Shown: positions 14,877 through 60,136, counted from the first letter of the stretch. The stretch: DNA of 64,000 bases from Candidatus Falkowbacteria bacterium (GCA_018693855.1 JABHMO010000043.1:72154-136153), one strand, 5' to 3'. The notes: a model not told the origin generated them from the sequence alone. Numbers and translations are program-made.

Positions 14877-14893
14877 ATCTTTATTAATCAGTA

Positions 14894-14915
14894 CCCGAGA
14901 ATCCGCATTCTCGGG
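14894..14915. repeat. REP-like palindrome CCCGAGAATCCGCATTCTCGGG at the 5' end of the RAYT gene
   Basis: It is a perfect 9-bp-arm palindrome of the same family as the hairpins at 1061-1080, 4293-4316 and 14573-14594. Confidence 0.8.
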
Positions 14916-14949
14916 CACTGATTTGATTTTAATTATTATTAATTATAAC

Positions 14950-18974: not shown

Positions 18975-19526
18975 ATGAAACGCTACACTTCGTTCTTTTA
19001 TATCATGCTTTTCGTATTTCTCCTGTCGCCGGCCTGCACCGGTGGCGGAGCGCCCGATCAGGGCGACAACGACGTCTACGACACAGATGAAGGTAACGTC
19101 GGCGACATCGATCAGATCGATGTGACTGACAACACCGAAATCAACGACGAAACGCCGAGCGACACGGCTGAGGAGCCGGTCGAAGAGGTTGAAGAGCCGG
19201 ACACGCAAATCGATCCACGTACTCCATTCCTGCCACTCGAGGGTGAATGGGAATGCGTAGAAGGTGATGGTTTTTACCAAGGAGATATCGTCAACCTACG
19301 TATTGCTGAATGGGACGCTGAACGGGAAGCCGTCAAGGTCATTGGCATCCAGCCATGTCCACGACTAGGCTTTTCGCAAAAAATCGCAGAAGATATTACG
19401 TTCTATGGTGCAATGGGCACTAAGTTCGAAGAAATTCTTTGCGACAACGGCACATTCAATCAAGGAATGAACATACTAACGTTCGATGCTGACGGAATCT
19501 TCTTCCAATACGAAAAACTGGAGTAG
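18975..19526 (+). CDS. Hypothetical acidic lipoprotein
   Basis: Its signal peptide ends in a lipobox (LSPAC), followed by a D/E-rich linker. The gene is GC-rich with a strong Shine-Dalgarno. A hairpin terminator lies at 19531-19562. Confidence 0.5.
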   Translation: MKRYTSFFYIMLFVFLLSPACTGGGAPDQGDNDVYDTDEGNVGDIDQIDVTDNTEINDETPSDTAEEPVEEVEEPDTQIDPRTPFLPLEGEWECVEGDGFYQGDIVNLRIAEWDAEREAVKVIGIQPCPRLGFSQKIAEDITFYGAMGTKFEEILCDNGTFNQGMNILTFDADGIFFQYEKLE

Positions 19527-19659
19527 TAAAGCCTGCTGGAACTTCGTCCACAGGCTTTTTCAATTCAAAAATCAATAGACAAAAACAGAGGCCTAATACC
19601 CCTGTTTTTATATTTTTTTTTATAACCATCAACGAACAAATGACTCAAGCAATAAACTT

Positions 19660-22600
19660 CTAGAAAAAATCCTGTGTACTTTGATCAGCAGCTGACTCTG
19701 GTCGAACATAAATATAAGAGCTGTACCACTGTCCTGTAGATTCATCAGATGATCTCATAAGACACTCACCATCGTTGCCATTTAGCCCGTCACCTAACTG
19801 GTAAACTTCTACAACATTTTGATTACACCAATTCCAATTGTCAGATACTGTAACGCGTGGTTTATATCGACACCACAGATTACCTTCTCGTAATACATGA
19901 CAATTTTCATTAACAACTTCATCGTCCTCGTCAACTGAACCACAAACAGGTAAACTCTCAGGTGAAGCACAAGTATAAGAATGAGAATAGTTAAAGTAAT
20001 CATCCGTACATGATTCAAAGGTATCACCCCAATTATCATAAGTATCAGTAGAGCAAGTGGCTGGTCTTCCAGTAAAATCAATTATACCATCACAATCAGA
20101 AGTTGAAGAGCAAGAATATCCAGGGATCATCTGACCATTATCTAGACACAGTCCAAGTTTTTCATGTTCTTGCCTTTGACATCTAGGTTTATGGTTTTTC
20201 AACTTACCAGTTGGTCCAGTTGGATCACTCTTATCTCCCCAATCAATTTTGACTTTTTTAATTGGCATTGCGTTTCTATCAGCCCATGCATAGAACTTCA
20301 AACTGACATCTGCTTGCGCACCAATTATTTCAACTGGCCCAGAACTGCTAGCACCGTCACCTGAAACAACTGTAATTGTGTTTGGAATAGCAGTATTAAT
20401 ATCATTATCATTAACAGTCTCAGCTACTCCCATTACAATCGGAGAATACACTTTATCGCCTAAACCTGCAGAAGAGTTAAAACTTTTCGTTAAATTATCC
20501 CAAGGCAAAGATGAAGTTGTATCTTCTACGTATTTCCATGCATACAAACCAACATTATCTCCAGCAGAAGTGCTATCATAGCTATGATCAAATACTGAAC
20601 TAGATTGAGCAAATAATCTTTTCAACTGCCAGTCCGAAACATTAGAGCTAGATTCCTTACTGATATCAAAACACATTGTTCCGCCGGCATAAGCAGCTTT
20701 AGAACCTAAGTTTAATCCTTGATCTACCACACCTTGACACTCTTTACGATTGGATTGAAGAGAAGATTCTCTAGAATTATCCTCACCAACCGCCAAATAA
20801 TTATACATGAAGAAACTACTAGTATCTTGAAGTGAGCTTGAATCATCAGGCAGAGCACCTAGAAAGCCACAAGCTTCAGGATATTCCAATGATTCTTCAA
20901 TAGACATTAGTGAAGCTTTTTCAGCGTCTAAATTACTTCCAATTAAATTATCCATTGAACCTCCGCTGAATGTATTACAGTTCGCCAAACCAACAGAACC
21001 TGTATCGCCACCACTTCTCACTTTATAATAATGATCTGAATAAATAGGACTAGAACTTGGAATTACCACGTACTTTGAGCAAACAGGAGCATCAGCTTCA
21101 TACAGCTCAATAGATGGTGTTCCTTGTCTTGTGATTAAATGCTTTGCCGCAATCATATTTGGTTCTTGATACTCTTTTGTATGTACTTGTCTATCAGAGT
21201 TATACTCTACTTGTATCTTTGCGTAGCAGTATTTAGTACCTAGACCACTTGGTTTCTTACAAGACATCTCCTCATCACAATCAGAATCACTATTACACAG
21301 ATTATCTGAACTTAAAGAATTTGTTGCATATCTAGTTCCTGAATCATTAATACAACTTAGATATTCACAGTCATCATCTGTACTTTCACAATTAGCATCG
21401 CCAGTATACAGTGCTCCACTAAACTTAAAATCTTCTTTTCCATCTCCATCATTATCAATATCGTCATCACACTGTTTTTTAGTTGTGTAAACACAATCCT
21501 CACAAAAGATATGATCACCTGAAGATGTATCTATACTATAAGAATGAACTCCGTTCGCTGTATAGTCTCTATTCAGGGCACTGCTTGCAAAATTCGGACC
21601 ATTATCAAAATACCATGAAAGTTTTGAATTATCAGCATTAGCATCTGTCACGCCAGTATACTCAGGAATGCATTCATGATGAGTAACAATAGTATCAGCA
21701 ATCTCTCGTTTATCACCAACACCTGGAACAAACGGACCTCCTTTATACAACTTCCATGATTTTGCATCAAAAAACGTTGTCAGACCTGGACGATATCCTT
21801 CTGGACAAACTGGTCCATTATAATCAGGACCAAAAGACCCTGTCCACGGATCTTCAATCGCAGCATCTCCATTGTTTTTAGCTCCACACTGTCTGAGGAG
21901 AGCTTTTGCAATAGTTAGTGAATCAAAAGCTTTCTGATTATAACTTGTTGGATCTGATGCTAAATTAGTTGTCCCAGCAATTAAACTATTAAAATAATCT
22001 TTATACTCTGGCCAATAATCATTACTAGGAACATTCGGCATATTATAATGAAGAGCGCCTTCATAACCATCTGAATAAGAATACATTCTATAAACATCCT
22101 CAAAAGAGGCTCCATGGAAGAACTCCCACCAAGGAGTACCATTAGTCCACTTCACATACGCAGAATTCCAATCAGATTGTTTATATTGCGTGTTTGGTTT
22201 CCAGTCACCGACCTTAGTATTCATCATATTTCCTTCGTTCTGTGTAATCGTAAATGACTGATCACCATCTTTACTATAAAAATTCCGAGGTGCAGCCAAC
22301 TCATCGTCATAATCCAGACTTAAATTGGAATTTAAACCATCATAATCACCACAACTTAAACTTCCGTCAGTTCTAGCAATGTAAGTATGACGTTTTTCCC
22401 ATCGCTCTGGTTCCACACAAAATTTAGGATCATCAGTACCTGCATATTCATCATCAATATAGAAACCAGCTTCTTCATGATTATCACGCAAATTGTTCAA
22501 ACCTTGCATGTTGTTTGTTGGATACCAGATTAAACATGGATGTTCTGATGTGTCATAAAGTACAGTTGATTCATCGTATTGCAAACAATATCCACTCAAA

Positions 22601-25600
22601 CCAGTATATTTAACTTTGTTCTTGTTTGCTTTTGCACATAAACCATTGTCTCCACAATCTTTAGTAGAGCAAGACTGATCTGTATCAATTACTGGATACT
22701 CTGAATCAGTGTCAGGAATTTTTTCAGGTGTTAAATCACAGGTACACGCAACATCTAAGTTATTCATACAGAATCCTGCATCAGGTGCTGGACTATAATC
22801 TGAATAGTTTGGATAGAACCGTTCATCAGAGCCATATCGATAACTCGTATAGAAACAACCATAATCTTTGTTATCACGTCCGGCAGGATTTTCTCGATGT
22901 GCAGAACTTAATGTAATAGTATTCACATTCTCATATCCTTCAACAGTATTTTCATCTATATATGATGGAAACGGAGATTCTTTCTGCGGATAAACTCGAC
23001 AACTCACAGCTGCTGAATCAGACAACGTTTCACTACCCGTTATAGACATTAAACATCTTCCATCAATATATTTACATTTTGCATCCAAGTCATTGTTACA
23101 CAGAGCACGACACTCGCTTCTAGTTGTATACTTATAACTAACTAATCTAAAATTCTCATCTGGGTATTCACATTTTGTATCACATGGATAATCTTCTCTT
23201 TCACCACATGAGTACGGTACATTATTTGGATTTGGACAAGAATTACCCGGTTCAACATAATTACCATCATCACATTTATTCAAATTACATTCTGTGTCAG
23301 TACTACAAATAGGATTTCCAACAGTACCACCACAGAATCGCGCTACTCTACAAATATTTGTACCCGTACAGTCATTATTGTTATAACATGCAACACCGGT
23401 GGACTCACCAGTTTCTCGACTATAACAGTACTTAGTGTTAACATCGATCGCTGTGTAATAGTTAAGTGGTGCCTTATCAACAATCGCATATCCAGAATAA
23501 TCCAAATCAAACCAACCCGTGTTTCTCGTTTTATATTTATCACCCGAAGTTAATGGTTCATTATTAGATAATAAATTTCTGGCAATTGGTGTTGTTACAA
23601 AATGTGCACATTTTCCATCAGCAGCAAGTTCTGTACATAAACCAAGCTCGTCACATTCTTCAACGTACGTATTGGCACGAGAGTCCCAACTCCAATGAGT
23701 ACTCTTACAGCCATACCAAGATGAACAAACTCTATCCTTCTTAACTTTAACAATTAAATTCGAGTCATTTTGTAATAATTTTCTAGCTGTACACTTGGCA
23801 TTTGTCTCAAGCAAATCTTCACTAATAGCCGTACTTCCCCCATCAGCACAAACAAATTGATCACCACTAACACCTGGAGCTGCATCTATCTGTTTTATTT
23901 TATCTAAACATAAATCAACCATGTCATTTCCAGCGTCCTCATAGATGGCCAGACATGCCTCCATTGCTCGACAATAAGTATATTCAGGAGAGCTACAATT
24001 TGGTTCAGTAATAATTGTATCTACATTATTATCATTATATTTCAGAGGCGACTGTGGTACATTCTCCTGTCTAACTTTGAAATATGTTTGATAAGCATTT
24101 CCAAGTTCATTACTTGACTGTGAAGTATCGCTTAACATCACACAACCAATATTTCTATCAACAGCACTATTACAACTTGTTTTATCAATATTTTCGTCGT
24201 TTAGATAATAGTAAGCCTTACCTCCATAATTTTTTAATAATGAAGCACCACTACCAACCATATTCTCTCGATCTGTTGGATCTAGGAAAGCAGTACATTT
24301 ATCAGCTTTGTTTTCACAAATTCCAACATAACCATCATAATCAGCGTCATCATTTCTAACAACATGATCCGTACCGTCATAATAATAATCTTTTGTTTCA
24401 CAAGGAATATCACCTTCATAATCATCTAAATCTGATTTTCTAATAAACCAACCTTCATAAGTATTACTTGCTCCAAGTAGAGAAACTGCTGTACCTTGAC
24501 GATATTCACAAACCCTATCATACGGATTTCTAAAATAGTAATTTGAACCATCCTTGTCAGTAAACTCTTCACATCCCTCTTCCGTTTCAGAACACAGAAT
24601 ATTTGAGTTCAATAAGTTATCAGGATTTATTACATAGAACTCTTCATCATATATACCTTGACCTTCTTTTTCTTTAACCACAGTACTACTGACTGTTGGA
24701 ATTAATAATAGATTCCCCGGATTATTTGGATCTTCAATAGAAACGCTTTGATTTGAAACAACGGTTAATTCAGGTTTCCCAACCGCAGTACAACCTTTTG
24801 ACCCAGCAGGACAACGACTATCATCATTTAAAACGAGATACAACCATTCATCAGCTCCGAAATTAATATATGACTTATCAGGATCTACCGATCCTGCCTG
24901 TTCAACTGGTGATGTATTTGCTGCAATTTCAATTGATTTTGGTTGATAGTCCTGACTGTTCTTTGTATCTATAACAGCTTCACAACCAACCTTGCTTTCA
25001 TCACAAAGTGAACTAAATCCTTTTAGATAATGAGTTGCACCATCTTTATCATTATACTCACGACATCCAACCATTGCTCGAGGTAGATCTCGAGTTGTGC
25101 TGTTTAATGTTATATCATTATCACAAGTCACAGGAATATCCCATGAATCTTTTATCAAATAATTAACATCATTCTTTTGAGCAATCTTATAATTATCTAT
25201 ATAGAAAGTGTTTTCACCAATAGACATAATCTCTACAGTTAAATTTGCTGAGATATTACCCTGAACTAAGAAATTAAATGTTTTGTACTCCCAATTTGAC
25301 TGACTAACACTAACAACACCAGAATCAAACGTTTCTCCACTAGGAGTTCCATCAGTAACAATCACTCGAATATCTGACGTTGCTGAACTTGCATCAGCTT
25401 TAATCCAGAAAGACAAAGCGTAATCGCCAAAACCACTTGCGACCAAATTTGTATATTCAGGTTTCGTACTTAATGTTTGTGAAACACCTCCAAAAACCAA
25501 GATTGGACCTTGATCTCTTGATTCAACTCTAAGAATTCTTTTCTGTTCTTCCTGTGATACATAATCAAATGCAGCACTTTTCTCTTCCCAATCAGAGAAG

Positions 25601-28600
25601 TTTGTTTCCAAAATAGTCTGTTCATCACCAGCAAAATTACCTCTATACTCTCGACATCCAGCACTATCAGAATCACAGGTTATACCTTCTCCAGGAATAG
25701 CCATGAAAATACATTCATTGTTCTGCCAAACACCTTTTCGCTGTTCACACTGAGACTGAGCTAGGACTGTAACAAACTGAGTACCTGTAAATTCAGTATA
25801 ATCTTGATATTGAAGAGTTCTTCTGTATGGATGACAGTTTTCACTACAAGAAATAACCTGAGAACTTAATCGATATGAAGCTTTTCCATCCTCATCGTAA
25901 TACTCTAGACAATCAGGGTTAGATTTACCTGCAAAAACATCAGCATTACAGCTAGCAGCGTTTGTCGCAGCGTCCAAAGTCGCGGGTTGAGTAACGTTGC
26001 TATCAGATTTCAAATAATGTGATTTTAACTGATATCCAGCATCTTCACTTGATTCCCAAGTAAAGTACATTGCACAACTACTTTCATTTTCAGGAACTTT
26101 CACGCAATGTTTCAACTGTTTGTAATACTCTTTTCCTTCCCCACCAACAGCTAGTTCGTCTAAATTAGTAAACTCTTCACAACCAACATTCTGAGCATCA
26201 CACTTCTCAGCACTTCTTGTAATTAAATATATAGGAAACTCTTCTTGTTCATAAAAAGTTTCTTCTTTTTTGAATGATTTATAACCAGCACACTCTTGCG
26301 GACAGTAATCTTGTGCTGAAGCAATACCGTAAACCTCACTTCCACCATCAGTTGGTCTATACTCATCACAACCAACTTCCTTTGCAGTACAGATCTCTGC
26401 AAAGTTTTCACAACCTCGTGGAAATGGACCTTGATCTTGGTTAGTCGCTGCTGTGCTTGCTAAAACAACTGAACTATCATACGGAGTTCCATAAATAGAA
26501 GCACTATTATAGCTAGTATCATAACAACCAATATACGAAGGCGCTTTTTGAACATAATTAATATTATTCAATGTAGAATCAGCACCATACGGTACGTATG
26601 AATGAGTTAAACCTTCCGCAGGAAAACTAATCTCCTCAACCATAATATCATCAATCTTCGCTCCTCCTGTTACTGTGAAAATCGGTTGTATCCAGATCCT
26701 ATTTTCTCGTAAAAAAGTTAAATCACTATTTTGAATATTGTTTGGAACAGTCTCAATTATTGAATAAATTCTATCCCAACTACCAGCAACAACCTCATCA
26801 CTACTATAAGAGCTAAAGTCTGTTGTTGTGTACAGAGTTGGTTTCGCAGCAGAGACGTGCGGTGAATACAGGTCAATTGCAACAGTTGAGCTATCTGATT
26901 CTTTTTTAATAAAAGCGGAAACAACAAAGTACCGTTTATTCTTCTTATAAACATTACCTATCTTCGGTCCATTTAAAACACCACTACTAGCAAAACTAAC
27001 AGCTGCAGTTCCTGACATTGCATCGTCAACCAAGAAACAGTTACTACCTCCACAATTAATACCAGCAGCTAAATTAGCATCATCCATTGCGCCTACATAT
27101 TCTTCAAAACTACTGTTTGGAGCTTGGTTTGAACCATAATCAACTTTTGTTCTAACAACTTCTGTACAACCTTCATCTGTTCGAGAACAACTTTGTGCTT
27201 CAACATTTTTATTTAATCTTATAATTGAATTACTAATATTATCATGAGAATAATCACTATTTTCATCATCTAACCAGTTCCACTGGTCTGTTACTTTTGA
27301 CATAGCAAGAGCGTACCATGAGCAACCAGCATTTGCACCATCACACATTCTATTATCAACTGTTTTATATACATAACCTTCAGTTCCACCACCTCGAATC
27401 TTCAAGCTTTTACAACTATCAAATGAAGCGAAACATTCATTTCCACCGAACTTCCAACTGTTCTTTTCTGCGGCACAGTATCCCCATGACTCACATTCTC
27501 CATTATCACTTTCCTTAATACAAGTCTTTACATCAGCACAATAAGAATTACGAGCATTTGTTCCTGGTGCAAGTAATTCTTCACCGTATCCTTCAATTTC
27601 ACATTTTGCTTTAGGGTATTTTAATATCCAATTTGGATTAATTAACCCTTCATACGGACTACCTGAAATATTAAACCCGTCTATTACTGTATTTAACGAG
27701 ACATTACCACCCGATGTTTCATTTAGAGTCGCAGCAATCTCCCAACCAATAGGTATAACTCGAGAGGTTCTAAGCTTTACTAAATTTGAATAACAAAAAC
27801 CTAACTCATAACAAGTATCAGTTGAATTTCTTGCATCATTTTTATGTATAATAGGTTTGTTACCATTGATATATTCCTGTTCAATAGCTTGAGCAACTGT
27901 TAAAGGTTCTCTTTGAGTTGCCATTCGAACAGCTTGCGCAAAGTTATGATCCATTACACAGTTGAACATGGTTGCATTTTTTGGACAACTAACAAAGTCA
28001 GATAATAGATTTATTTCCTTTGGATTATAATTTACACTAACTTTTTGTACTGTTGAATTAGCAAAAGATCTTTCGATTCTATCATCTCTTTTTTGTTGAC
28101 TTAAGTATCCAAAAGCAGCTCCCTGTGGTGGCACATACTCATCTGCTTCACTCTTAATACCAAAATCAAGTAATTTTTGAGTAGCAACTTTTAATCCCTG
28201 AGAAACAAATGTTGTTAAAAAAGCACTTAAAACTGCTGCGGGAATATCAGACATAACATGCATAGCAGGACCAAGTTCCGTTTTTTCCGCTTCCTGAATA
28301 GCTGAGACTTCATTCATGATATACCCACGCCTCAACCAGGCTGGAGTGGTAATATCTTTTCCAGAAATACTAGTTTTTGCTTTCATTCCTTGTCCTTCTC
28401 GTCGCTGTTCTTTCTCTGCAGAGAGAAGCTCGGCTTTAGTCTTATTTAATTGACCTTCAACAGTTAAAGCTATTCCGATATCAGCAGTTTCACGACTGGT
28501 TGCCACTTCCCAGCCAGACTCGAGCATCTTACCAGTCATAAAAGCAGCCAATTTATTTGGATCGTCTTTATATAAGGACTCATATGAACGATATTTTTCT

Positions 28601-29190
28601 GCTAGACTTGCACCAAGTGCTTCATAGTTACCTTTAATTTTAGTAAAAGTACAAAGAGGTTTCTCCTGCTCTTGATCATCCGGAATATCAAGTCCAAGTG
28701 TAATCTGCATTTTCAAACTAACATCAGGATCACAGATATCAAATCCAAGAGAATCCCAAACAGAGCCACGCAATGAATCTAAAAACTTACCAGTCGTATT
28801 ATCCACTATATCTTTTTGGAACTTTGCCCAAGTTTTTGAATAAAACATTGGATCACCTTTACCTTGCATGGCTTTTAGTGATTCAATAGCAGCCGTCCTA
28901 GCCAGACTTACCATTGCATTCCTCATTGTCAAAGCTGCCGTCAATTTAATCGAATTCCATAATTCAACAGTAATCGCCTCTTCAAGCTCATCAGCCAATT
29001 CATTCGCAGTATCAGTAAACCACTGATTAATATCTGTAGCTAAAGAAGTCGATTCAATCGCTTCTAACGCTGGAGCAGAGACAACTTGTCCAAACGCAAC
29101 ACCTGGTGCAACCAATTGAAAACAAACCAAAAATATAACGACTTTTGTAAATAGACGATTTAAACGATTAGGTCGATGAGAAGAATTCAT
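19660..29190 (-). CDS. Giant secreted Cys-rich protein (3176 aa), probably a cell-surface or adhesin protein
   Basis: It is a single uninterrupted ORF with host-like codon usage and an N-terminal signal peptide. It is extremely rich in Cys, Asn, Asp and Gly, with many CxxC/CxC clusters. The membrane-anchored TSP3-repeat protein gene sits immediately upstream. Confidence 0.7.
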   Translation of the reverse strand: MNSSHRPNRLNRLFTKVVIFLVCFQLVAPGVAFGQVVSAPALEAIESTSLATDINQWFTDTANELADELEEAITVELWNSIKLTAALTMRNAMVSLARTAAIESLKAMQGKGDPMFYSKTWAKFQKDIVDNTTGKFLDSLRGSVWDSLGFDICDPDVSLKMQITLGLDIPDDQEQEKPLCTFTKIKGNYEALGASLAEKYRSYESLYKDDPNKLAAFMTGKMLESGWEVATSRETADIGIALTVEGQLNKTKAELLSAEKEQRREGQGMKAKTSISGKDITTPAWLRRGYIMNEVSAIQEAEKTELGPAMHVMSDIPAAVLSAFLTTFVSQGLKVATQKLLDFGIKSEADEYVPPQGAAFGYLSQQKRDDRIERSFANSTVQKVSVNYNPKEINLLSDFVSCPKNATMFNCVMDHNFAQAVRMATQREPLTVAQAIEQEYINGNKPIIHKNDARNSTDTCYELGFCYSNLVKLRTSRVIPIGWEIAATLNETSGGNVSLNTVIDGFNISGSPYEGLINPNWILKYPKAKCEIEGYGEELLAPGTNARNSYCADVKTCIKESDNGECESWGYCAAEKNSWKFGGNECFASFDSCKSLKIRGGGTEGYVYKTVDNRMCDGANAGCSWYALAMSKVTDQWNWLDDENSDYSHDNISNSIIRLNKNVEAQSCSRTDEGCTEVVRTKVDYGSNQAPNSSFEEYVGAMDDANLAAGINCGGSNCFLVDDAMSGTAAVSFASSGVLNGPKIGNVYKKNKRYFVVSAFIKKESDSSTVAIDLYSPHVSAAKPTLYTTTDFSSYSSDEVVAGSWDRIYSIIETVPNNIQNSDLTFLRENRIWIQPIFTVTGGAKIDDIMVEEISFPAEGLTHSYVPYGADSTLNNINYVQKAPSYIGCYDTSYNSASIYGTPYDSSVVLASTAATNQDQGPFPRGCENFAEICTAKEVGCDEYRPTDGGSEVYGIASAQDYCPQECAGYKSFKKEETFYEQEEFPIYLITRSAEKCDAQNVGCEEFTNLDELAVGGEGKEYYKQLKHCVKVPENESSCAMYFTWESSEDAGYQLKSHYLKSDSNVTQPATLDAATNAASCNADVFAGKSNPDCLEYYDEDGKASYRLSSQVISCSENCHPYRRTLQYQDYTEFTGTQFVTVLAQSQCEQRKGVWQNNECIFMAIPGEGITCDSDSAGCREYRGNFAGDEQTILETNFSDWEEKSAAFDYVSQEEQKRILRVESRDQGPILVFGGVSQTLSTKPEYTNLVASGFGDYALSFWIKADASSATSDIRVIVTDGTPSGETFDSGVVSVSQSNWEYKTFNFLVQGNISANLTVEIMSIGENTFYIDNYKIAQKNDVNYLIKDSWDIPVTCDNDITLNSTTRDLPRAMVGCREYNDKDGATHYLKGFSSLCDESKVGCEAVIDTKNSQDYQPKSIEIAANTSPVEQAGSVDPDKSYINFGADEWLYLVLNDDSRCPAGSKGCTAVGKPELTVVSNQSVSIEDPNNPGNLLLIPTVSSTVVKEKEGQGIYDEEFYVINPDNLLNSNILCSETEEGCEEFTDKDGSNYYFRNPYDRVCEYRQGTAVSLLGASNTYEGWFIRKSDLDDYEGDIPCETKDYYYDGTDHVVRNDDADYDGYVGICENKADKCTAFLDPTDRENMVGSGASLLKNYGGKAYYYLNDENIDKTSCNSAVDRNIGCVMLSDTSQSSNELGNAYQTYFKVRQENVPQSPLKYNDNNVDTIITEPNCSSPEYTYCRAMEACLAIYEDAGNDMVDLCLDKIKQIDAAPGVSGDQFVCADGGSTAISEDLLETNAKCTARKLLQNDSNLIVKVKKDRVCSSWYGCKSTHWSWDSRANTYVEECDELGLCTELAADGKCAHFVTTPIARNLLSNNEPLTSGDKYKTRNTGWFDLDYSGYAIVDKAPLNYYTAIDVNTKYCYSRETGESTGVACYNNNDCTGTNICRVARFCGGTVGNPICSTDTECNLNKCDDGNYVEPGNSCPNPNNVPYSCGEREDYPCDTKCEYPDENFRLVSYKYTTRSECRALCNNDLDAKCKYIDGRCLMSITGSETLSDSAAVSCRVYPQKESPFPSYIDENTVEGYENVNTITLSSAHRENPAGRDNKDYGCFYTSYRYGSDERFYPNYSDYSPAPDAGFCMNNLDVACTCDLTPEKIPDTDSEYPVIDTDQSCSTKDCGDNGLCAKANKNKVKYTGLSGYCLQYDESTVLYDTSEHPCLIWYPTNNMQGLNNLRDNHEEAGFYIDDEYAGTDDPKFCVEPERWEKRHTYIARTDGSLSCGDYDGLNSNLSLDYDDELAAPRNFYSKDGDQSFTITQNEGNMMNTKVGDWKPNTQYKQSDWNSAYVKWTNGTPWWEFFHGASFEDVYRMYSYSDGYEGALHYNMPNVPSNDYWPEYKDYFNSLIAGTTNLASDPTSYNQKAFDSLTIAKALLRQCGAKNNGDAAIEDPWTGSFGPDYNGPVCPEGYRPGLTTFFDAKSWKLYKGGPFVPGVGDKREIADTIVTHHECIPEYTGVTDANADNSKLSWYFDNGPNFASSALNRDYTANGVHSYSIDTSSGDHIFCEDCVYTTKKQCDDDIDNDGDGKEDFKFSGALYTGDANCESTDDDCEYLSCINDSGTRYATNSLSSDNLCNSDSDCDEEMSCKKPSGLGTKYCYAKIQVEYNSDRQVHTKEYQEPNMIAAKHLITRQGTPSIELYEADAPVCSKYVVIPSSSPIYSDHYYKVRSGGDTGSVGLANCNTFSGGSMDNLIGSNLDAEKASLMSIEESLEYPEACGFLGALPDDSSSLQDTSSFFMYNYLAVGEDNSRESSLQSNRKECQGVVDQGLNLGSKAAYAGGTMCFDISKESSSNVSDWQLKRLFAQSSSVFDHSYDSTSAGDNVGLYAWKYVEDTTSSLPWDNLTKSFNSSAGLGDKVYSPIVMGVAETVNDNDINTAIPNTITVVSGDGASSSGPVEIIGAQADVSLKFYAWADRNAMPIKKVKIDWGDKSDPTGPTGKLKNHKPRCQRQEHEKLGLCLDNGQMIPGYSCSSTSDCDGIIDFTGRPATCSTDTYDNWGDTFESCTDDYFNYSHSYTCASPESLPVCGSVDEDDEVVNENCHVLREGNLWCRYKPRVTVSDNWNWCNQNVVEVYQLGDGLNGNDGECLMRSSDESTGQWYSSYIYVRPESAADQSTQDFF

Positions 29191-29216
29191 AATATTTTAT
29201 TTTAAGTAAATATAAA

Positions 29217-30044
29217 TTATTGTTGTGCTTGAGCTTCAGCAAGAGCTCTTGAAAAGATAGATTTAAGGTCTTCATCAGAAACTTGATCCAAATCTGAATC
29301 ACTATAACCGTTCTGTCGTAACATTTCCCTTATTTGGTCTGCAGAATAGTTATATGGATCAACAACATCCGTACCAGTAGACAAATCCATATCCTGCATA
29401 GCATTAAACGCATCTGGATTTTCTTTTATTGCGGCTGTATAGAAAGCGACTAACTGTTCATCAGTAAATTGGTCAACTTGAGCTTGAGTCGCAACGCCAG
29501 ATTCTAGAATTAGAGCTCGGAGTGTATCAACAGGAGGAACAACTATTTCTTCATCGGGCACGTCCAGCAAACTGTCAGTTCCGCCCTCTCCACCATTTCC
29601 TGATCCAGAAAAACAGGTATATCCATCTGGACAGTTTGGATCTGTCCCTGCATAGATCTCTTCATAATCAGAAAGTCCATCACTATCACTATCAGCAAGA
29701 AACACGCTTGTTTCATAAACAAACTCTTCATCGTAATCATTTATTCCATCCGCGTCTGTATCTTTTTGCCGAAGAGCAATTGAATCTTCATTATCGTTTA
29801 ACAGTTCCTTAACATCAACTGCGTTATCACCTTTATTTTGAGCGACTTCAGCCAAAGGAACATTTAACAAAGCACTCATTCGAGCAAAACCAATCAAAAC
29901 TATGACAAATAAAATTATCACAAATCCAATAATAACTGTTTTGCGTCTTTTGTTATTTTTTTCTAATAGAGCCTGATCTTCTTCACTTACAACCACTTCG
30001 CCTTCGATCGGCTCTTGGTTTTCACCAGAGAATTCTTCATTCAT
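29217..30044 (-). CDS. Single-pass membrane protein with thrombospondin type-3-like Ca-binding repeats
   Basis: It has one TM helix and acidic DxDxDGxxDxxE repeats (DTDADGINDYDE, DSDSDGLSDYEE). It is paralogous to the genes at 44239-45435 and 45535-46119. Confidence 0.6.
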   Translation of the reverse strand: MNEEFSGENQEPIEGEVVVSEEDQALLEKNNKRRKTVIIGFVIILFVIVLIGFARMSALLNVPLAEVAQNKGDNAVDVKELLNDNEDSIALRQKDTDADGINDYDEEFVYETSVFLADSDSDGLSDYEEIYAGTDPNCPDGYTCFSGSGNGGEGGTDSLLDVPDEEIVVPPVDTLRALILESGVATQAQVDQFTDEQLVAFYTAAIKENPDAFNAMQDMDLSTGTDVVDPYNYSADQIREMLRQNGYSDSDLDQVSDEDLKSIFSRALAEAQAQQ

Positions 30045-30135
30045 AAGCTAAATAAAACAAAAAAATAATTTTGTTCTTTAAACAAATGATTTCACTAAAT
30101 TTATTATACCATAAATTCACTCTTCTAACTAAAAA

Positions 30136-30150
30136 AATAGTGGATAATAT
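30136..30150. promoter_or_regulatory. Candidate operator palindrome GTGGATAaTATCCAC upstream of the TSP3/giant-protein operon
   Basis: It has perfect 7-bp arms around a single central nucleotide, about 90 bp upstream of the 30044 start. Confidence 0.3.
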
Positions 30151-30249
30151 CCACATTCTTTTCCACTAAAATTAGTTAAATATTTTTCGTTTGATTAATC
30201 GCGAAAAATTGTACTTAAAACAACGTTAGTGATAAAAGTTTACTTAACG

Positions 30250-30620
30250 AAATTGGATTCCTGCCTACGCAGGAATGACGATTTGAAGGTACGTTATTCC
30301 AATACACCAAGGGGTCTGGGGGGCGACTGTCTAAGCGTCATTAATCAACGCACAAAAAGTCGCTAAATAGAACATAGTGAGTTTTAGCTCCCCAGCAGTT
30401 TTCTTGCCTTGCCGAAGCTTATGTAATAGCGAAGGCGGGTGGTTACTTTTGGCGCCAAAAGCAACTCGACCGAGAGGGCGAAAAATCAACGCAGCAAACA
30501 ATATTCAATTTTCGACATATTTTCACCGAATCCACAAATTTTACCTGGTGTATTATAAAGATCCCTCCAGCCCATCCTACGCTAATAGCTTCGGAGGGCA
30601 GGCAAGGTCGGGATGACAAA
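30250..30620. ncRNA. Candidate structured RNA of unknown class in a 600-bp gene-free, GC-elevated spacer
   Basis: It has long-range complementarity (CCTTGCCGAAGCTTAT…ATAGCG at 30407-30437 with CGCTAATAGCTTCGGAGGGCAGGCAAGG at 30572-30603), an internal palindrome CTTTTGGCGCCAAAAG, and GGG/CCC-rich stems. No convincing ORF is present. The strand is undetermined. Confidence 0.3.
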
Positions 30621-30640
30621 AGATTAAGAGAACAAACACA

Positions 30641-31459
30641 CTATCCAAAAAGCTTCACCAACTTCTTCCAATCATCCAACTCCAACTCCTGAGCCCTCAC
30701 ATTCTCATCCAAACCTAACTCTTCAAAAAAACTATGCAATAATTTTTTATCAAAACTTTTACCTAAATTCCCAATCAACTTCTTTCGTTTGCTTGAAAAT
30801 CCAGTTTTAATTAACTTGAAAAACAGATCCTGCTCTTTCCGAGATAAGTCAGATTTCAACAACTCGAGCCGAATCACAACACTCTTAACTTTTGGGGCCG
30901 GAAAAAAACAGCTTTCTGAAACAGTGAACAAAATTTTCGGTTTGGAAAAAAGCTGTACACTCAAAGCTAAAATATTCATGTCCGGCGACTTCGCCAACAT
31001 CCTCTCCCCCACTTCCTTCTGAATCATCAAAACCATTTCACTTGGTTTGTTTTTGGCTTCTAAAAATTTTCTAATGAAATTACTGGTAATCGAGTATGGC
31101 AAATTAGCAACAATCTTATAATTCTTCCCTAAATTTTTCGTAATTTCCTTTTCCTCAACTTTCAGAACATCCTTATGAAGCAACTTCAAATTAGAGGATT
31201 CACTATACTCATCCTCTAAAAATTGATGTAATTTTCGATCAAATTCAACTGCCAACACCTTTTTTGACTTATCAATCAACTTTGCTGTTAACGATCCAAA
31301 TCCAGGCCCCACCTCCAAAACTCGATCAGTTTTTTTTATATTCGATTCACGTACAATTTTATTCAAAATATTATCATCAATCAAAAAATTCTGCCCACGC
31401 AACTTCGTAGGATGAATCCCCAACTTTTCCAAGTTTTCCATCAAAACAGATATTTTCAT
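30641..31459 (-). CDS. rsmA: 16S rRNA (adenine1518/1519-N6)-dimethyltransferase
   Basis: It carries RGQNFLIDDNIL, and has the SAM motif VLEVGPGFGSLT. Confidence 0.9.
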   Translation of the reverse strand: MKISVLMENLEKLGIHPTKLRGQNFLIDDNILNKIVRESNIKKTDRVLEVGPGFGSLTAKLIDKSKKVLAVEFDRKLHQFLEDEYSESSNLKLLHKDVLKVEEKEITKNLGKNYKIVANLPYSITSNFIRKFLEAKNKPSEMVLMIQKEVGERMLAKSPDMNILALSVQLFSKPKILFTVSESCFFPAPKVKSVVIRLELLKSDLSRKEQDLFFKLIKTGFSSKRKKLIGNLGKSFDKKLLHSFFEELGLDENVRAQELELDDWKKLVKLFG

Positions 31460-44238: not shown

Positions 44239-45435
44239 CTAAGGGCACGCCGCAAACTCACAATCCGGCCCAGTCCTCCCAACAGAACTACCATCCGGAC
44301 AGATCTTAGCTTCCTCGGTACAAGCAATTACATTATCAATCGGTTCATCTGGCGCAACAGGTGCTTCAGCAAAGTCCCCTTCAATAAAGTTAAAACTATC
44401 AACCATCATCTTAAACATTGCAGGATAAAAAGCCTCTACTTTCTGACCAATTCCATAGTTGATAACGTAGACCATGTCTTGCTTTGCAATGAAAACAGTA
44501 AATCCATCCGGTGATTCAATAACTGGGATATCGTAATGATTGTTGTAAAATTTCAACTGAGTTCTAGTTGCTCGTGGATTCAACCGTAGATACCAATCAA
44601 CAATAGATTCTTCAGAATTCTTGTTCGCAATGAATACATTAACAAACTCATTATTACTTGAAGTAAACAGTACATCTTCAGTATCAAGAGGATCAAGTGA
44701 ATCAGCTAACCAACTTTTTGGATATAGAAGTTTATAACTGTACATTGTATTCTCATACTCTGCAACAAAATCACCTTCTTCTAACTTTACCATACTTTGA
44801 GTTGGACTGTAAAAATTCATTAACTCAGAACCATCAGCATAACCATCACCATCTGAATCAGCAATTGTTGCGTTTGTGTTAATTAAAAGTTCTTCCTGAT
44901 CAGTCAGACCATCATTATCACTATCAACTGATGCCATAACATTTACATTGAATCGATTTGCATAACTATAATCAAACTCTTTCGCAGGTACTAAATTATC
45001 AGGTAAAACATCATCAACTGGATCATCCGCTGGCTCCTCTGTATCTAATTCATCAGGTTGTGGTTCATCAGCATCATCTTGATCAACGACTGGATCAACT
45101 GTCTGAGGTTCGAAAACAACTTGATTTTGATTATCTTCACTAGAAGGTAAATATGTATAGACAAGTAATCCAATTGAAGCTAAAACTAAAATTGCTAGAA
45201 TTACCATGATAAGAATAACACCCAGTTTACTCTTCTTATGTTTAGGTGCGCCGTTAGAAGGTTTAGAAGCAGTTGCAGTCCCCTTTGATCCTTTTGTCGC
45301 AGAAACTGTTTTGTCCCCTAAATAATACTCCATGGGCATAGTATGAACTTGCTCATCTTGTGGAGATTTTTCTTGTTCTTCTTTAAGCGGTTTATTTACT
45401 TTATTGTCTAATTTTGGTTGTTCATCGTCAAACAT
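44239..45435 (-). CDS. Single-pass membrane protein with TSP3-like Ca-binding repeats and a C-terminal Cys-containing region
   Basis: It has a TM helix (GVILIMVILAILVLASIGLL), an acidic linker, and DSDNDGLTDQEE / DSDGDGYADGSE repeats. The start was moved to ATG 45433-45435 because the ORF-track N terminus is encoded by the 52-bp repeat element. Confidence 0.55.
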   Translation of the reverse strand: MFDDEQPKLDNKVNKPLKEEQEKSPQDEQVHTMPMEYYLGDKTVSATKGSKGTATASKPSNGAPKHKKSKLGVILIMVILAILVLASIGLLVYTYLPSSEDNQNQVVFEPQTVDPVVDQDDADEPQPDELDTEEPADDPVDDVLPDNLVPAKEFDYSYANRFNVNVMASVDSDNDGLTDQEELLINTNATIADSDGDGYADGSELMNFYSPTQSMVKLEEGDFVAEYENTMYSYKLLYPKSWLADSLDPLDTEDVLFTSSNNEFVNVFIANKNSEESIVDWYLRLNPRATRTQLKFYNNHYDIPVIESPDGFTVFIAKQDMVYVINYGIGQKVEAFYPAMFKMMVDSFNFIEGDFAEAPVAPDEPIDNVIACTEEAKICPDGSSVGRTGPDCEFAACP

Positions 45436-45522
45436 AGGAAAAGGGGCCAGCCCGCAATGTCTACGCATAGCGTTGCTGGCGGGGCTAAACGAGGCTATAC
45501 GAGGCTATAAAAGGCTTTCGGA
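45436..45522. repeat. Second copy of the 52-bp GC-rich core plus GAGGCTATA direct repeats, immediately upstream of the start codon
   Basis: The sequence GGGGCCAGCCCGCAATGTCTACGCATAGCGTTGCTGGCGGGGCTAAACGAGGCTATACGAGGCTATAAAAGGC is near-identical to 33140-33192. Confidence 0.75.
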
Positions 45523-45534
45523 TAGTCCTTGTAA

Positions 45535-46119
45535 TTAATTTATATTCAAATTGTCTTTAGCTTCTTGAAAATTCAATAACTTACCTGCCCCGTTGGGGTT
45601 GTATCCGGATTGAACCTCTTGTCCGTCAAGATAACCATCATTGTCACTATCTGTATCATTTGGATCTGTTTTATAAAACATAATCTCATCTCGATCAAAA
45701 AGTCCATCATTATCACTGTCAGCCTTGCGAGGATTTGTTTTATACTGTTTTTCTTCCTCGTTAGTTAATCCATCAAAATCAAAATCATCACCACTTGCTT
45801 CTTCAATCTGTTTTTTGACTTCATCAACATCTTCATTCATTCCTAAACCTTCAGTTTGATCAACCTGCGCTTCTTCATAGTCTTCTGGGACTGGAATATA
45901 CGTCTGATGATAAACTTTATTTCGATAATAAGCCAAAGCTCCTCCAGCAATTACAACTACTACTACAATAACAATAACAATCTTCCATGGAAACTTTTTC
46001 TTTTCTAAAACAGGTTCTGGACTAACATCCGAACTTTCAACTTGAGATTGTACTGGCGCTTCTTTCGGCCCAGCATCAACCTCATCAAAAATATCCTCAA
46101 CTTGTTTATCTTCATCCAT
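45535..46119 (-). CDS. Single-pass membrane protein with TSP3-like Ca-binding repeats
   Basis: It has a TM helix (WKIVIVIVVVVVIAGGALAYY) and DSDNDGLFDRDE / DSDNDGYLDGQE repeats. It is paralogous to 29217-30044 and 44239-45435. Confidence 0.6.
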   Translation of the reverse strand: MDEDKQVEDIFDEVDAGPKEAPVQSQVESSDVSPEPVLEKKKFPWKIVIVIVVVVVIAGGALAYYRNKVYHQTYIPVPEDYEEAQVDQTEGLGMNEDVDEVKKQIEEASGDDFDFDGLTNEEEKQYKTNPRKADSDNDGLFDRDEIMFYKTDPNDTDSDNDGYLDGQEVQSGYNPNGAGKLLNFQEAKDNLNIN

Positions 46120-46127
46120 ATATATTG

Positions 46128-46292
46128 ATGCTAATCTGCTAATGATATGCGAATGCCGCGAACGCTTCGCTATGCTAATTTACGAATTACACAAATAGTT
46201 AACTATTCGTAGTATTCGTGTAATTCGCAAATTAGCATCTCAGCAATTTTCGTATCATTCGCATGCTTTTCGTGGATTAGCATCGGTTTACT
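46128..46292. repeat. Copy 4 of the roughly 160-bp palindromic intergenic element
   Basis: It is near-identical to copies 1 and 2. It spans from 9 bp upstream of the TSP3 gene start to the TAA stop of the 2830-aa gene; the stop lies inside the element terminus …CATCGGTTTA, as also seen in copy 1 with nfu. Confidence 0.8.
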
Positions 46293-49200
46293 TATAAATA
46301 TAATCACAATCCCCACCACTAATACAAATATCACCAGTAGCTGTTTTTCTCTTTGGTAATACTCTGAATTCATTATAGAAACGGAACCCTTGCTTTTCAG
46401 TGTTGTAGCCAGCTGCATAACCATCTAAAGTGAAATCTATATTGTAAGCATTTGGTCCTAAAGCTTGATAATGATAAACAGGGTTATCTGAAATTATACT
46501 ATAAACAGTTGAATAGAACTCTGGTAAGTTTGCTCCAGTAACATCACTACTGTAACAAGTATACTTATCGTAATCATGATCACCGTCAGACGCGGCACTT
46601 GGACAGATTGAACACCACTGACCAGGTACAACACACTGTTTCTGACCTTGGCAATAAAGTTCAACTGAACCAGCACTTAAATCCTGACAGATCTCACCCT
46701 GCGGTGTTGGATTTGTTGTTGCTTGTTCCCAAACAAAATGATTATCAGGATCAACAGGCAACGCACCACCAAGCATACTACCAAAAACCCTTTGCCAACT
46801 TGGCCAAACACTAAACGTCTCCCCTCTTACATATGTACCACTTTCTAACTGAGGAACCTTATTACTATTTTGAGAACGATAACCATCAAGTAATAAATGA
46901 ACTAAATTAATATCTTGAACTCGTCGAATATCTTTCATGACTGACTGTTTCGCTGTTGTTCCAGTTGTACCTTCTGACAAGTTGTTAATATTAAACTTAA
47001 TCGTCTCAATCATTTGAGAGAAAATATTTTGCGTATTTGAATTTGCACCTGAATTATATCCGAGTAAGTAGATATTATTATAAAGAGTTCCTGTTGTTGA
47101 AATATTACCAGCTGCAATATAGACTGAGTTATCTTCTTTTCCACCTTGATAACAAAACTTGCCAGTTGAACTTTCTAAACAATCAATATCTAAAGATGAA
47201 ATATTACCAGCATTTGGTGCATATTTCATATACCATAACTCTGGAGCCAGTGCTTCAGGGTTTTCATATATTCGAAGAGAGATAACATCCTCTGATTCGT
47301 CAAAATTATCATCTAACGCAACGTCAGTTCGACTTAAGAAATACTGTGCAAGTAAAGCTGGCTCTTCCCAATTATCATTAGCGTCATTACACTTCGGATC
47401 TTCCAGATCACTTAATCCATTCAAATCATTATCAATACCATCTTGGCACTGTTTAATAACTTGATCAGGATTTGCAGGGGTTTTTTGTCCTGCTTCAACA
47501 AAATCACTAAATATATCAGTTGATAGTACTTTTAATTTAGGTAAATCATCATGTTCTCCAGCCATTAAACATTTTCCATTACCAATCTCCGAACAGTCAG
47601 TATCAGAACTACAAGATGTAACTCCATCAGAACAAACAAGTGGAGCTCGACATAGCTGATCACCAATACCAGCACAGTCAGCATCATCGTAACAAGCTTG
47701 ACCATTGTAACAACTTTTCACAAGTGGCTGACCTAAATCACGACAGTAGAAAAGACCAACATTATAAATTTTGTGATATAGATGAGTTAAGTATCCTGAA
47801 TCAGTACCATACATACTAAAATCACCACTGTAATCAGTTGGAGCCCAAAGTTTGCTGCAGATAAACACTTCTAGATTTGAGTAACCAGAAACTGATGCGC
47901 CGCCAGTACTACTATCACTAACAGTATCATCTGTTATAATAGTTTTTGCCTCAATCGCTGTTTGTCCATTTTTATTGAAACTAGCAACATTAACTTTACT
48001 TGGATCTTCTGTGTCCACATAAGAACCAACATTTGCGATTGAAGTATCTAAACTGTTCCATGCCCATTTCCAACTATAAACATTAGGAATGCTTTGAATT
48101 GGCTGATCATAGTTTTGAGCAATTGCTTGATACTCTGCATTCACATTAGGTTTTGTTACAAATCGATCAGCTGGATTGATATAAACATTGTTCACTCGGC
48201 AAATCTCATCACCAGTTGTAAAACTAGTTCCAATACTACTTGCTTTACCGCAAACATTTTCAATACTATTAAACTCTAAATTATATTTTGTATTTTCACC
48301 TAATAAATAATGAGGAACAACTAAAACCTCTGTATTTCCAAAAGAATTTTCCGTTACTGAGAAATTAAATCCAACATCACAACGTTTCGGAGCAGCTGCC
48401 CAACCACTTTTTACTAATAAATCACGAACAGTTAACTTGACTTTTTGGTATCCATTATAGATAGACTGTTTAACGGCTTTGACTGGATTTTTAGTAAACT
48501 TATAGTTTAAACTATTAACAGCCACACCATCGCCAGTTATTGATTGATAGTACTGTGTCATTTCGTCCTTTAATAAGAGCTGTTCAAAAACAGTAAACTC
48601 ATCAATTGCTCCATCAAACCCAGCCCAGTCAAGCTGAGGATTTTCCATTCTATTACCAATTGATAAATCATCTAAAGCAACTTTCGTAACTAATGAGAAA
48701 GTGCTTTTACTTTTTCCTTGTCCATCAATATTAACAAAAATATTACCTAGACCATCATAACTAATCATGATATGAGACCACACGTTTTCAGGAATTCTCA
48801 TACCTGAAAAATTATTTATTCGAGGATCACCTTTCTCGCCAGTTTTCAATAACAGTATGTTCCCCTTAAAGACAGCTAAACCAATTGATTCATTTGAGCC
48901 ATCAGCGGAAGCAGTGAATATAGTCTTTGGCTCAGCGGCAAGACTAGCAGGGTTTATCCAAGCACTAACTGTCCAAGGTTTAGCCTGACCAAATGAAGAA
49001 GTTGATGTTTTGACAACAGAATCTTGGCCATCGAATTCAAGAGCTTGTCCGACCTGTCCGTCAACAAACACTCCAGCTACGACTTCTGCTTGATTATTTA
49101 GAATTGAATCATAAGTAGACTGACCAGAGCCTTCATCAAAACCATAATGAGAGATCACAACAGGTAGATCAACCGGACAAGTTTCATTAGCTGGAATTTC

Positions 49201-59359: not shown

Positions 59360-59941
59360 CTAGTATTCGATATTATCAAAAAAAGTTAATCTCCAGACAG
59401 GCCAACCTCGGAACCAGACTTTTCCGACGATTAGATCTCGATCAACTGGACCAAAACTTCGAGAATCAAGACTGTACTCTCGATTATCACCCAAAACATA
59501 GTATTCATCAGCGCCAAGTGTCCACGTAGTAGTACCTCTGGTTCTAGCACCGTCTTCTAAATAGATTGCTTCATCAAGAATCATTTTCTTATCATCACTA
59601 TGCACGTAAACCATGTTATCTTTTATTTCAACTTTTTCACCCGGTAGTCCGATTATTCTTTTAATGAAATACTGTGATGGATCTTTTGGATATTTGAAAA
59701 CGATAATATCACCTCGGACAGGATCACCAAATCTATAACCAATTTCATTAATGATCAAATACTCATGATCATAAAAACTTGGCTCCATTGAAGCACCTTT
59801 TACATAAAAGGGCTGTATTAAAAAATATCTAACTGGAATAATGATAGCTAATGAAACAGCTACAACCTTGACTAAATCCCAAACAAATTGCAGAGTTTTC
59901 TGCATTGGGCTTAATTCTTCAAAATACTCTCTTTCACTCAT
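59360..59941 (-). CDS. lepB: Signal peptidase I
   Basis: It has the S26 catalytic regions (…KGASMEPSF…, …GDNREYSLDSRSFGPV…). The start was moved to ATG 59939-59941; upstream of it lies a GGCTATA-type motif at 59950-59978. Confidence 0.85.
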   Translation of the reverse strand: MSEREYFEELSPMQKTLQFVWDLVKVVAVSLAIIIPVRYFLIQPFYVKGASMEPSFYDHEYLIINEIGYRFGDPVRGDIIVFKYPKDPSQYFIKRIIGLPGEKVEIKDNMVYVHSDDKKMILDEAIYLEDGARTRGTTTWTLGADEYYVLGDNREYSLDSRSFGPVDRDLIVGKVWFRGWPVWRLTFFDNIEY

Positions 59942-60136
59942 AAAACAAAGAAGGCTATACAGGGCTAAAGAAGGCTTAAAAATAAACAAAATTAAGACCT
60001 TTTTCACTCTCTTAGGTGTTAAGTTGCCATTATTATAACAAATTTTCAAACTTAATGCAAGTTTATCAAATAGAATGTTTTGTTAATAAATTTACAAAAA
60101 GAAAAAGACGACGCAAGACGCCGTCACTAGCAATGT

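Follow-up and report, generated by a model that had tools for sequence, protein, structure and literature searches.

A small TSP3-repeat membrane protein and a giant cysteine-rich secreted protein encoded side by side at a conserved locus of Candidatus Falkowbacteria and related Patescibacteria

A large part of bacterial diversity belongs to the Patescibacteria, or candidate phyla radiation (CPR), which usually have very small genomes; the organism studied here, one of the Falkowbacteria, is a tiny-celled groundwater bacterium of this group, and a very small genome is presumed for it as well. To our knowledge, how cells attach to a partner or build their envelope is not known for most Patescibacteria lineages outside Saccharibacteria. 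The DNA analyzed, referred to below as the window, is a stretch of 64,000 nt from a Candidatus Falkowbacteria metagenome-assembled genome (JABHMO010000043.1:72154-136153; GC about 36%), and all positions are counted on the whole of it. NCBI taxonomy places the source taxon in the Patescibacteria group, Parcubacteria group. About 10.4 kb of the window are occupied by two genes on the same strand, separated by 26 nt, the first encoding a small membrane protein with TSP3 repeats and the second a giant Cys-rich secreted protein. A sequence-only reading had described the pair in these terms, and both open reading frames (ORFs), the transmembrane (TM) helix of the small protein and the signal peptide of the giant were confirmed; the NCBI entry HN958_04270 matches the 275-aa protein with 100% identity. 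The two-gene unit is probably a core, uncharacterised cell-surface structure of the lineage.

29217..30044, minus strand: gene of the small TSP3 membrane protein, 275 aa, the proposed membrane dock (ORF)
19660..29190, minus strand: gene of the giant Cys-rich secreted protein, 3176 aa (ORF)
30641..31459: ksgA, upstream neighbour of the pair

The first large Cys-rich extracellular proteins of CPR bacteria to be noticed were those of Peribacteria (Anantharaman et al. 2016, PMC4736985), and in Peregrinibacteria about 20 proteins of approximately 1650 aa with 7% Cys, including a 14-gene cluster, were proposed to provide rigidity or attachment (PMC4736985). Like the Peribacteria proteins, the giant described here is large and Cys-rich, carries a signal peptide and belongs to a small-genome CPR bacterium. 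Going by their published description (PMC4736985), it differs from them in belonging to one orthologous family of about 3000 aa, in its 3.8% Cys and fixed genomic position, and in having both an obligate TSP3 partner gene and domains that resemble carbohydrate-binding modules (CBMs).

Giant proteins rich in TSP3 and dockerin repeats have been described in Omnitrophota (bioRxiv 10.1101/2023.11.21.568195), but unlike in those dockerin-type giants, the Ca-binding repeats are here on the small protein and not on the giant. The pair shares with dockerin/cohesin and TSP3 docking the short, duplicated DxDxDG Ca-binding loops of extracellular assemblies, although no cohesin-like module was identified in the giant. 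A Cys pair within the repeats is a further likeness, to the TSP3 region of OmpA, as far as that work is related in the Omnitrophota study (Dai et al. 2017, via 10.1101/2023.11.21.568195). In the B domain of Staphylococcus aureus Bap, the DxDxDG loops ("EF-hand 2/3") are experimentally Ca-responsive (PDB 7c7r/7c7u; PMC7785521). Their motif is nearly identical to that of the small protein (DTDGDGKNDGDEVVNYKTSP vs. DTDADGINDYDEEFVYETS); the Bap loops, however, lie inside one giant wall-anchored adhesin, where they regulate amyloid assembly, whereas here they are part of a separate single-pass protein.

In the Sulfolobales, the adjacent and co-transcribed genes SlaA and SlaB encode a large secreted outer protein and a small membrane stalk, respectively, the stalk being a coiled coil. 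The likeness is one of logic only, namely a small membrane-anchored protein together with a large secreted protein that has no anchor of its own. In contrast to SlaA/SlaB, the gene order is reversed, TSP3 repeats stand in place of the coiled coil, the giant is twice the size of SlaA and a hypervariable region is present. Searches of Pfam, NCBIfam and PDB returned no S-layer family, and no sequence or fold relation to SlaA/SlaB was detected. The open-access literature searched contains no description of this giant family or of its obligate partner, and the pair appears to add an uncharacterised type to the giant surface proteins known from CPR bacteria, one that has new domains and a membrane partner of its own with predicted Ca-binding repeats.

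An exhaustive phmmer search with residues 1-1200 of the giant recovered a family of 1283 50%-identity cluster representatives, of which 1074 match at E<=1e-30. Among the 150 best matches listed, nearly all are 2400-3900 aa long, and the homologues found in the first protein search were all 2600-3650 aa in length and all labelled hypothetical protein. Members occur in at least 581 species representatives of GTDB, among them Falkowbacteria, Uhrbacteria, Magasanikbacteria and Komeilibacteria. Conservation of the gene pair was assessed at 80 loci from different species, using a hidden Markov model of the small protein and a phmmer search for KsgA; 76 of these loci had enough upstream DNA, and a TSP3 homologue lies directly upstream of the giant on the same strand in every one of them (76/76); the giants concerned are 26-39% identical over their N-terminal 700 residues. 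The gaps between the TSP3 and giant ORFs, with each ORF taken from stop to stop, are mostly -90 to +70 bp; two are about 550 bp, and at least one of these (L001/L008 contig) holds a small inserted GIY-YIG gene. At 58 of 69 loci ksgA is directly upstream of the TSP3 gene, in most relatives at a distance of 4-100 bp, and the five relatives inspected by hand (giants 25-39% identical) show ksgA, the small TM protein and the giant in this order on one strand. With prfA and ksgA as its housekeeping neighbours, the pair occupies a single fixed locus.

Small GIY-YIG nuclease genes were seen at two positions in L001 (5611-5916 and 16181-16486), one separating the TSP3 gene from the giant and one on the downstream side of the giant, and at one in L003 (4247-4585), between ksgA and the TSP3 gene. 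In the window, the spacer between ksgA and the TSP3 gene measures 596 bp (30045-30640); it contains GC-rich, hairpin-like pieces such as cattcctgcgtaggcaggaatc, and no GIY-YIG remnant was found by tblastn in the window. The convergent gene downstream of the giant (18975..19526) was considered as a member of the module and rejected, being conserved in four loci only. Many of the third-party annotation records of metagenome-assembled genomes with this Patescibacteria-specific pair (L010, L014, L015 and about 30 others) are titled "uncultured Gammaproteobacteria bacterium", which is probably a placeholder or a wrong label.

For the small protein, one alignment of 20 homologues and one of 6 homologues derived from synteny were examined. 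The layout common to them consists of a variable acidic N-terminal tail, K/R residues, a TM helix, a linker, the TSP3 block and helical modules. The parts recognised in the window protein are as follows.

29886..29936, minus strand: transmembrane helix, residues 37-53 (from the sequence and as a helix in the AlphaFold2 model, predicted local distance difference test (pLDDT) 84-95)
29610..29762, minus strand: two TSP3 repeats (DTDADGINDYDE, DSDSDGLSDYEE) and a Cys-clamped half repeat DPNCPDGYTC, residues 95-145
29223..29531, minus strand: two three-helix modules of about 40 residues, residues 172-217 and 235-274, with the motif LRxLLxxxGxxxxxLDxxSDEDL

The exact motif D.D.DG..D..E occurs twice, at residues 95 and 118, within a nearly invariant block that reads KDTDxDGxxDxDE-x3-Y-TSPYL-DSDSDGxxDxxE-x5-DPxCPxGxxC across the family. 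Residues D95, D97, D99, G100, E106, D118, D120, D122, D126 and E129 are invariant in 20 sequences. Residues 118-137 match the Pfam family TSP3_bac (PF18884) with 29.7 bits against a cut-off of 25, and 19 of the 20 homologues match it too, the best with an E-value of 8e-11. The AlphaFold2 model of the small protein has a mean pLDDT of 74, which rises above 90 in the TSP3 block (residues 90-140) and to 84-96 in the helical modules. Over 47 columns, with 30% identity, the predicted block fits the B domain of S. aureus Bap (7c7r) with an rmsd of 0.7 Å, and a profile search of the PDB finds Bap at the same segment, DTDGDGKNDGDEVVNYKTSP. By profile, Ca-coordinating residues and modelled DxDxDG loop geometry, the small protein can be assigned to TSP3_bac.

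Short motifs resembling TSP3 are frequent among secreted proteins of bacteria, and it might be argued that the segment is acidic low complexity and its position beside the giant fortuitous. The adjacency at 76 of 76 loci, the invariance of the motif residues, a Pfam match above threshold and a model that fits the DxDxDG loops of a solved structure refute this explanation, the probability of which we regard as negligible. The repeats are true DxDxDG repeats of the TSP3 type, and the idea of a functional partnership between the TSP3 protein and the giant, put forward in the sequence-only reading, is supported by both the adjacency and the repeat geometry.

Apart from the helix at about residues 37-53, which is preceded by KNNKRRK, the small protein has no hydrophobic helix, and an invariant Cys pair follows the TM helix. 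Because of the positive-inside rule and this conserved Cys pair, the N-terminus is placed inside and the C-terminal part outside the cell, a predicted orientation. The three-helix modules are present in one to three copies among the homologues, and no match to solved folds or Pfam families was obtained for them in PDB profile, fold and Pfam searches. Matches to EAD1 and LEM in one to three homologues (one LEM match with E 0.097) were weak and judged to be noise; the LRxxLxxxG pattern of the modules loosely recalls SAP/HeH motifs, and one source (JGI) gives the TSP3 protein a label that begins "predicted nucleic ac…", which was likewise judged to be noise.

The giant starts with an ordinary signal peptide and not with a pilin-like module, as had been stated earlier; within the window's giants the T4SS_pilin domain is found on the other one only (giant2, see below). 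Positively charged residues (R6, R9, R12, K16) precede an h-region at residues 17-31 with a Kyte-Doolittle (KD) hydropathy of 2.08, which is followed by A32-F33-G34↓Q35. All 24 relatives whose N-terminus is intact have a signal-peptide end of the AxA type, with ANA↓Q, AQA↓Q or AHA↓Q, and the giant carries what is, on sequence criteria, a Sec-type cleavable type I signal peptide. This is the sole strongly hydrophobic segment of the window giant; no second one was found, and LPxTG is present in 0 of 26 family members. Anchoring by sortase or as a lipoprotein was rejected given the missing LPxTG and the position of C23, which lies inside the h-region and is not conserved.

Cys accounts for 3.8% of the giant (121 residues), about three times the 1.2% found in the other 33 ORFs of the window, and the mature protein has an even number, 120. 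The giant had also been called exceptionally rich in Asn, Asp and Gly, but these are only mildly raised (6.9/8.3/7.1% vs. 5.2/6.9/6.4% in the other ORFs), and the increase is larger for Ser and Tyr. Nor are there many CxC and CxxC clusters, as had been claimed: each motif occurs once. The recurrent element is a C-x6-C hairpin (CxxxxxGCxE[YF]), of which there are at least 12 copies; spacings of 6 and 7 are the most frequent between Cys residues. The Cys residues are largely conserved, and most of the invariant alignment columns are Cys. The whole giant has no sequence relative in Pfam (E<=0.1), NCBIfam or PDB. Its regions, in order from the N-terminus, are listed below.

29089..29190, minus strand: signal peptide, residues 1-34, predicted cleavage AFG↓Q (from the sequence; family-wide AxA↓Q pattern)
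28036..29088, minus strand: helical, Cys-poor conserved region, residues 35-385 (low-pLDDT helices; candidate partner-binding or base region)
27586..28035, minus strand: most conserved alpha/beta core, residues 386-535 (pLDDT 70-86; invariant R474, R477, G482, W483, E484)
26581..27075, minus strand: CBM4/16/22/61-like beta-sandwich 1, residues ~706-870
25156..25548, minus strand: CBM-like beta-sandwich 2, residues ~1215-1345 (hhalign against sandwich 1: probability 84%, E 8e-6)
22441..25155, minus strand: Cys-rich C-x6-C modules, residues 1346-2250 (similar modules at 536-705 and 871-1214)
20359..22440, minus strand: hypervariable region, residues 2251-2944 (alignment occupancy 0.3-0.65, identity 0.11-0.22)
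19663..20358, minus strand: conserved C-terminal Cys-rich domain, residues 2945-3176 (FYAWAD..MPI, WGD, KNHKP.C, DNWGWCN; no membrane or sortase anchor)

The proximal two thirds of the giant, about 2250 residues, are conserved, while the distal third is hypervariable up to the conserved end. An AlphaFold2 model of residues 1-1200, built on an alignment of 26 sequences, has a mean pLDDT of 56 and is usable in the blocks 390-530, 710-870 and 1000-1180 only. Fold searches are dominated by the CBM domain: the beta-jelly-roll fold predicted for the module matches solved CBMs and fits the CBM4/9/16/22 superfamily. The Pfam family CBM_4_9 does not match the window giant, but it matches 5 of 16 family members somewhere in the protein (best E 8.9e-7), and sugar binding by the CBM-like domains is suggested by the modelled fold. 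For the core at 386-535, a profile search against PDB gave hits at chance level only, and it has no Pfam or PDB relative. The same holds for the C-terminal domain, where Pfam searches on 12 copies returned nothing and the PDB profile search stayed at chance level; an impression of a PKD-like beta-sandwich from the WGD and DNWGWCN motifs was dropped as unsupported by these Pfam and PDB profile searches. Domain annotation has in this way identified the TSP3 block and the CBM-like sandwiches, and the rest of the giant is without a known family.

A conserved, borderline-hydrophobic helix lies at residues 312-330 of the giant (28201-28257, minus strand: VMSDIPAAVLSAFLTTFVS; KD 1.51; family motif IPxxxxxAFLNTFVS), and could be either a buried core helix or a membrane-associating segment. 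Its place in the N-terminal helical region, together with the invariant R, R, W and E of the alpha/beta core, would suit a secreted offensive effector, lytic or pore-forming, which the CBM-like domains target to prey or host envelopes and for which the small protein serves delivery or self-protection. We consider this very unlikely. The toxins matched in the fold searches all match through the CBM-type beta-sandwich, which is a generic fold, and no catalytic or pore-forming family was found in Pfam, NCBIfam or PDB searches; moreover, effectors usually vary in presence and location, unlike a fixed housekeeping locus.

As to the function of the pair, the best explanation, to which we give even odds, is that the small protein docks the giant to the membrane in a Ca-dependent way and that the giant is a secreted protein of the envelope or a surface fibre that binds glycans. 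Docking is proposed because the giant lacks an anchor of its own and the small protein comprises little besides one. Both genes would be co-transcribed, here from an extended -10 promoter of their own, with the transcript ending at the hairpin at 19611..19579. The first product would span the membrane once and expose, along with two three-helix modules, a pair of TSP3 loops that bind Ca2+ and a half repeat clamped by a disulfide. The second, of about 3000 residues, would be exported by Sec, lose its AxA↓Q signal peptide (a gene for signal peptidase I is present in the window, 59360..60049) and fold outside the cell. With about 60 disulfides, it may form a chain of C-x6-C modules with two CBM-type sandwiches, a hypervariable region and a conserved cap. 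Held at the membrane by the small protein through its conserved N-terminal end, in a Ca2+-dependent manner, the giant would form a rigid fibre or sheath that passes through the wall and reaches out from the cell surface. Its CBM modules and variable distal part could then touch glycans; for a CPR bacterium with an episymbiotic life, these would most probably be the glycans of a host or partner cell. The window also encodes MraY, MurD, FtsW and an LCP enzyme besides signal peptidase I (59360..60049), and the cell therefore has a walled envelope.

The fixed adjacency (76/76), the complementary topology of the two products, the predicted Ca-binding loops and the probable extracellular, rigid and glycan-binding character of the giant support the docking model, as do the size of the family, the second pairing of TSP3 genes with a giant in the window and the genes for a walled envelope. 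Several points weigh against it. That the small protein physically binds the giant, and that the anchoring depends on Ca, is what we infer. The N-terminal 385 residues of the giant, its proposed docking end, are modelled at low confidence, and the conserved C-terminal domain could equally be the anchored end. Folds like those of CBMs also turn up in toxins and phage receptor-binding proteins in the fold searches, and the single-locus synteny among prfA and ksgA fits a structural component of the envelope equally well.

The main rival explanation is that the pair forms an envelope layer, either S-layer-like or a wall-spanning scaffold, with the small protein as stalk and the giant as canopy, after the manner of SlaB/SlaA, and the CBMs bound to the wall glycans of the cell itself. 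An anchor combined with a large subunit is the same logic as in the docking model, two thirds of the giant are conserved, the one locus among prfA and ksgA is kept in at least 581 species representatives, and the organism builds a cell wall and has an LCP enzyme. In most relatives, however, the gap of 4-100 bp between ksgA and the pair leaves no room for a strong, dedicated S-layer promoter, and a hypervariable distal third is more typical of proteins facing partners or predators than of a lattice former. Taking into account also the lack of similarity to known S-layer proteins in the Pfam, NCBIfam and PDB searches, we hold a structural layer to be possible but rather doubtful.

A further explanation is raised by the second locus of the window, which also combines TSP3 genes with a giant.

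44239-56933, minus strand: second locus, in transcription order pilin+Big_5 (680 aa), giant2 (2830 aa), TSP3 (194 aa), TSP3 (409 aa)
46288..54780, minus strand: giant2, with T4SS_pilin (PF18895), Big_5, TIG and LamG domains and 4.0% Cys
45535..46119 and 44239..45468, minus strand: the downstream TSP3 proteins of the second locus

That the pairing of TSP3 proteins with giants recurs at this locus was borne out: its order, with pilin+Big_5, the pilin-headed giant and two or three TSP3 genes, is kept in 3 of 3 distant relatives (L090-L092), and in the window and these relatives it is flanked by hisS upstream and by ybeY, dgkA, ftsA and ftsZ downstream. Giant2 is a fixed core locus as well, beside cell-division genes; a metagenome scan for its relatives gave one close locus. 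The gene order, contrary to what had been claimed, is not that of the first locus, since the TSP3 genes lie downstream of giant2 and the 680-aa protein upstream of it is T4SS_pilin+Big_5. The giant resembles giant2 in being syntenically fixed, Cys-rich and accompanied by single-pass TSP3 proteins, but giant2 has its own membrane module of the T4SS_pilin type and recognisable Pfam domains. The two are essentially unrelated (best BLASTP E 9e-4 over 87 residues), and membership of the giant among the T4SS_pilin-headed giants was rejected on this marginal similarity and on the lack of Pfam matches at E<=0.1. The window has only three ORFs with TSP3 motifs, each adjoining a giant gene; their products are 26-30% identical in the tail-TM-TSP3 part and differ in their C-termini.

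Small proteins of the tail-TM-TSP3 type hence accompany an unrelated giant family too, in the opposite order, which suggests a generic role, and the C-terminal parts of the three proteins differ. One could envisage that the two genes share an operon while their products do not bind. The TSP3 protein would then help in a general way, by storing Ca2+ or as a chaperone when very large secreted proteins are exported or oxidatively folded, or it would organise the wall or membrane independently; the giant would be held otherwise or released. A generic helper, however, needs no place beside each of its clients. The neighbour found at 76 of 76 loci is one particular TSP3 protein, an orthologue with conserved helical modules of its own, and this argues for a dedicated partner. 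We regard the helper role as unlikely.

Features that may govern transcription of the pair are the following.

30103..30111, minus strand: extended -10 promoter element TGgTATAAT (read from the sequence), located some 60 nt before the ATG of the TSP3 gene
30140-30154, no strand assigned: 15-bp palindrome GTGGATAATATCCAC / GTGGATAaTATCCAC, 95 nt upstream of the TSP3 ATG
19579..19611, minus strand: intrinsic-terminator-like hairpin with a 14-bp stem and T-rich tail, 49 nt past the stop codon of the giant

The TGgTATAAT block is identical in a close relative (L088), where the whole upstream region of about 190 nt is approximately 95% identical. It was not listed by a scan for consensus promoters because there is no good -35 element at 16-18 nt. 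The palindrome had been pointed out before and is indeed present, but little weight can be given to it: the window contains eleven 7+1+7 palindromes vs. about six in shuffled sequence. On the transcribed strand it is followed by a T-run, TATTTTTTT, and looks like a weak terminator; it may be either a terminator-like hairpin of this kind, insulating the pair from ksgA, or an operator. L088 keeps it minus the central base, within the block of about 190 nt that is similarly conserved throughout. Most relatives do not have the palindrome as a feature, since ksgA abuts the TSP3 gene and leaves no such spacer. With this sequence occurring once in the window, no enrichment and relatives mostly without the spacer, the palindrome was discarded as a regulatory motif and no role is assignable to it.

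Around the pair, no Rfam family was found anywhere in the window. A 706-aa protein with Peptidase_C39_2 and a MopE-type Cys-rich metal-binding motif (4.5% Cys) is encoded at 14998-17118 (minus strand), with a second C39_2 protein of 278 aa near it (12894-13730, minus strand); such C39-like peptidases near the giant gene might process the secreted giant. An ORF of 231 aa for an IS200-like Y1 transposase is located at 14223-14918 (minus strand), and a Y1_Tnp gene is likewise found near the giant in the relative L005. The segment 16001-18000, which spans the C39/MopE gene and a PsbP_2-like gene, has a GC content of 0.453 vs. about 0.36 elsewhere.

If the dock model holds, it may be extended further, though this is put forward tentatively. 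The TSP3 dock and the giant might constitute an undescribed, lineage-defining surface organelle of the branch comprising Falkowbacteria, Uhrbacteria, Magasanikbacteria and Komeilibacteria. This would be a glycan-binding fibre, latched by Ca2+ and stiffened by disulfides, and the chief means by which these cells recognize and hold their host. The hypervariable third would then set the host range, and the core at residues 386-535 (R..R....GWE) would be a new functional module, possibly an enzymatic one.

All related genomes examined have the pair at the same position, and it is without Pfam or NCBIfam annotation, all records being named "hypothetical protein". At least three new domain families would be justified, for the N-terminal region with its alpha/beta core, for the C-x6-C module and for the C-terminal domain. 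The TSP3 protein and the giant are concrete candidates for the components of a core surface structure shared by an entire deep lineage.

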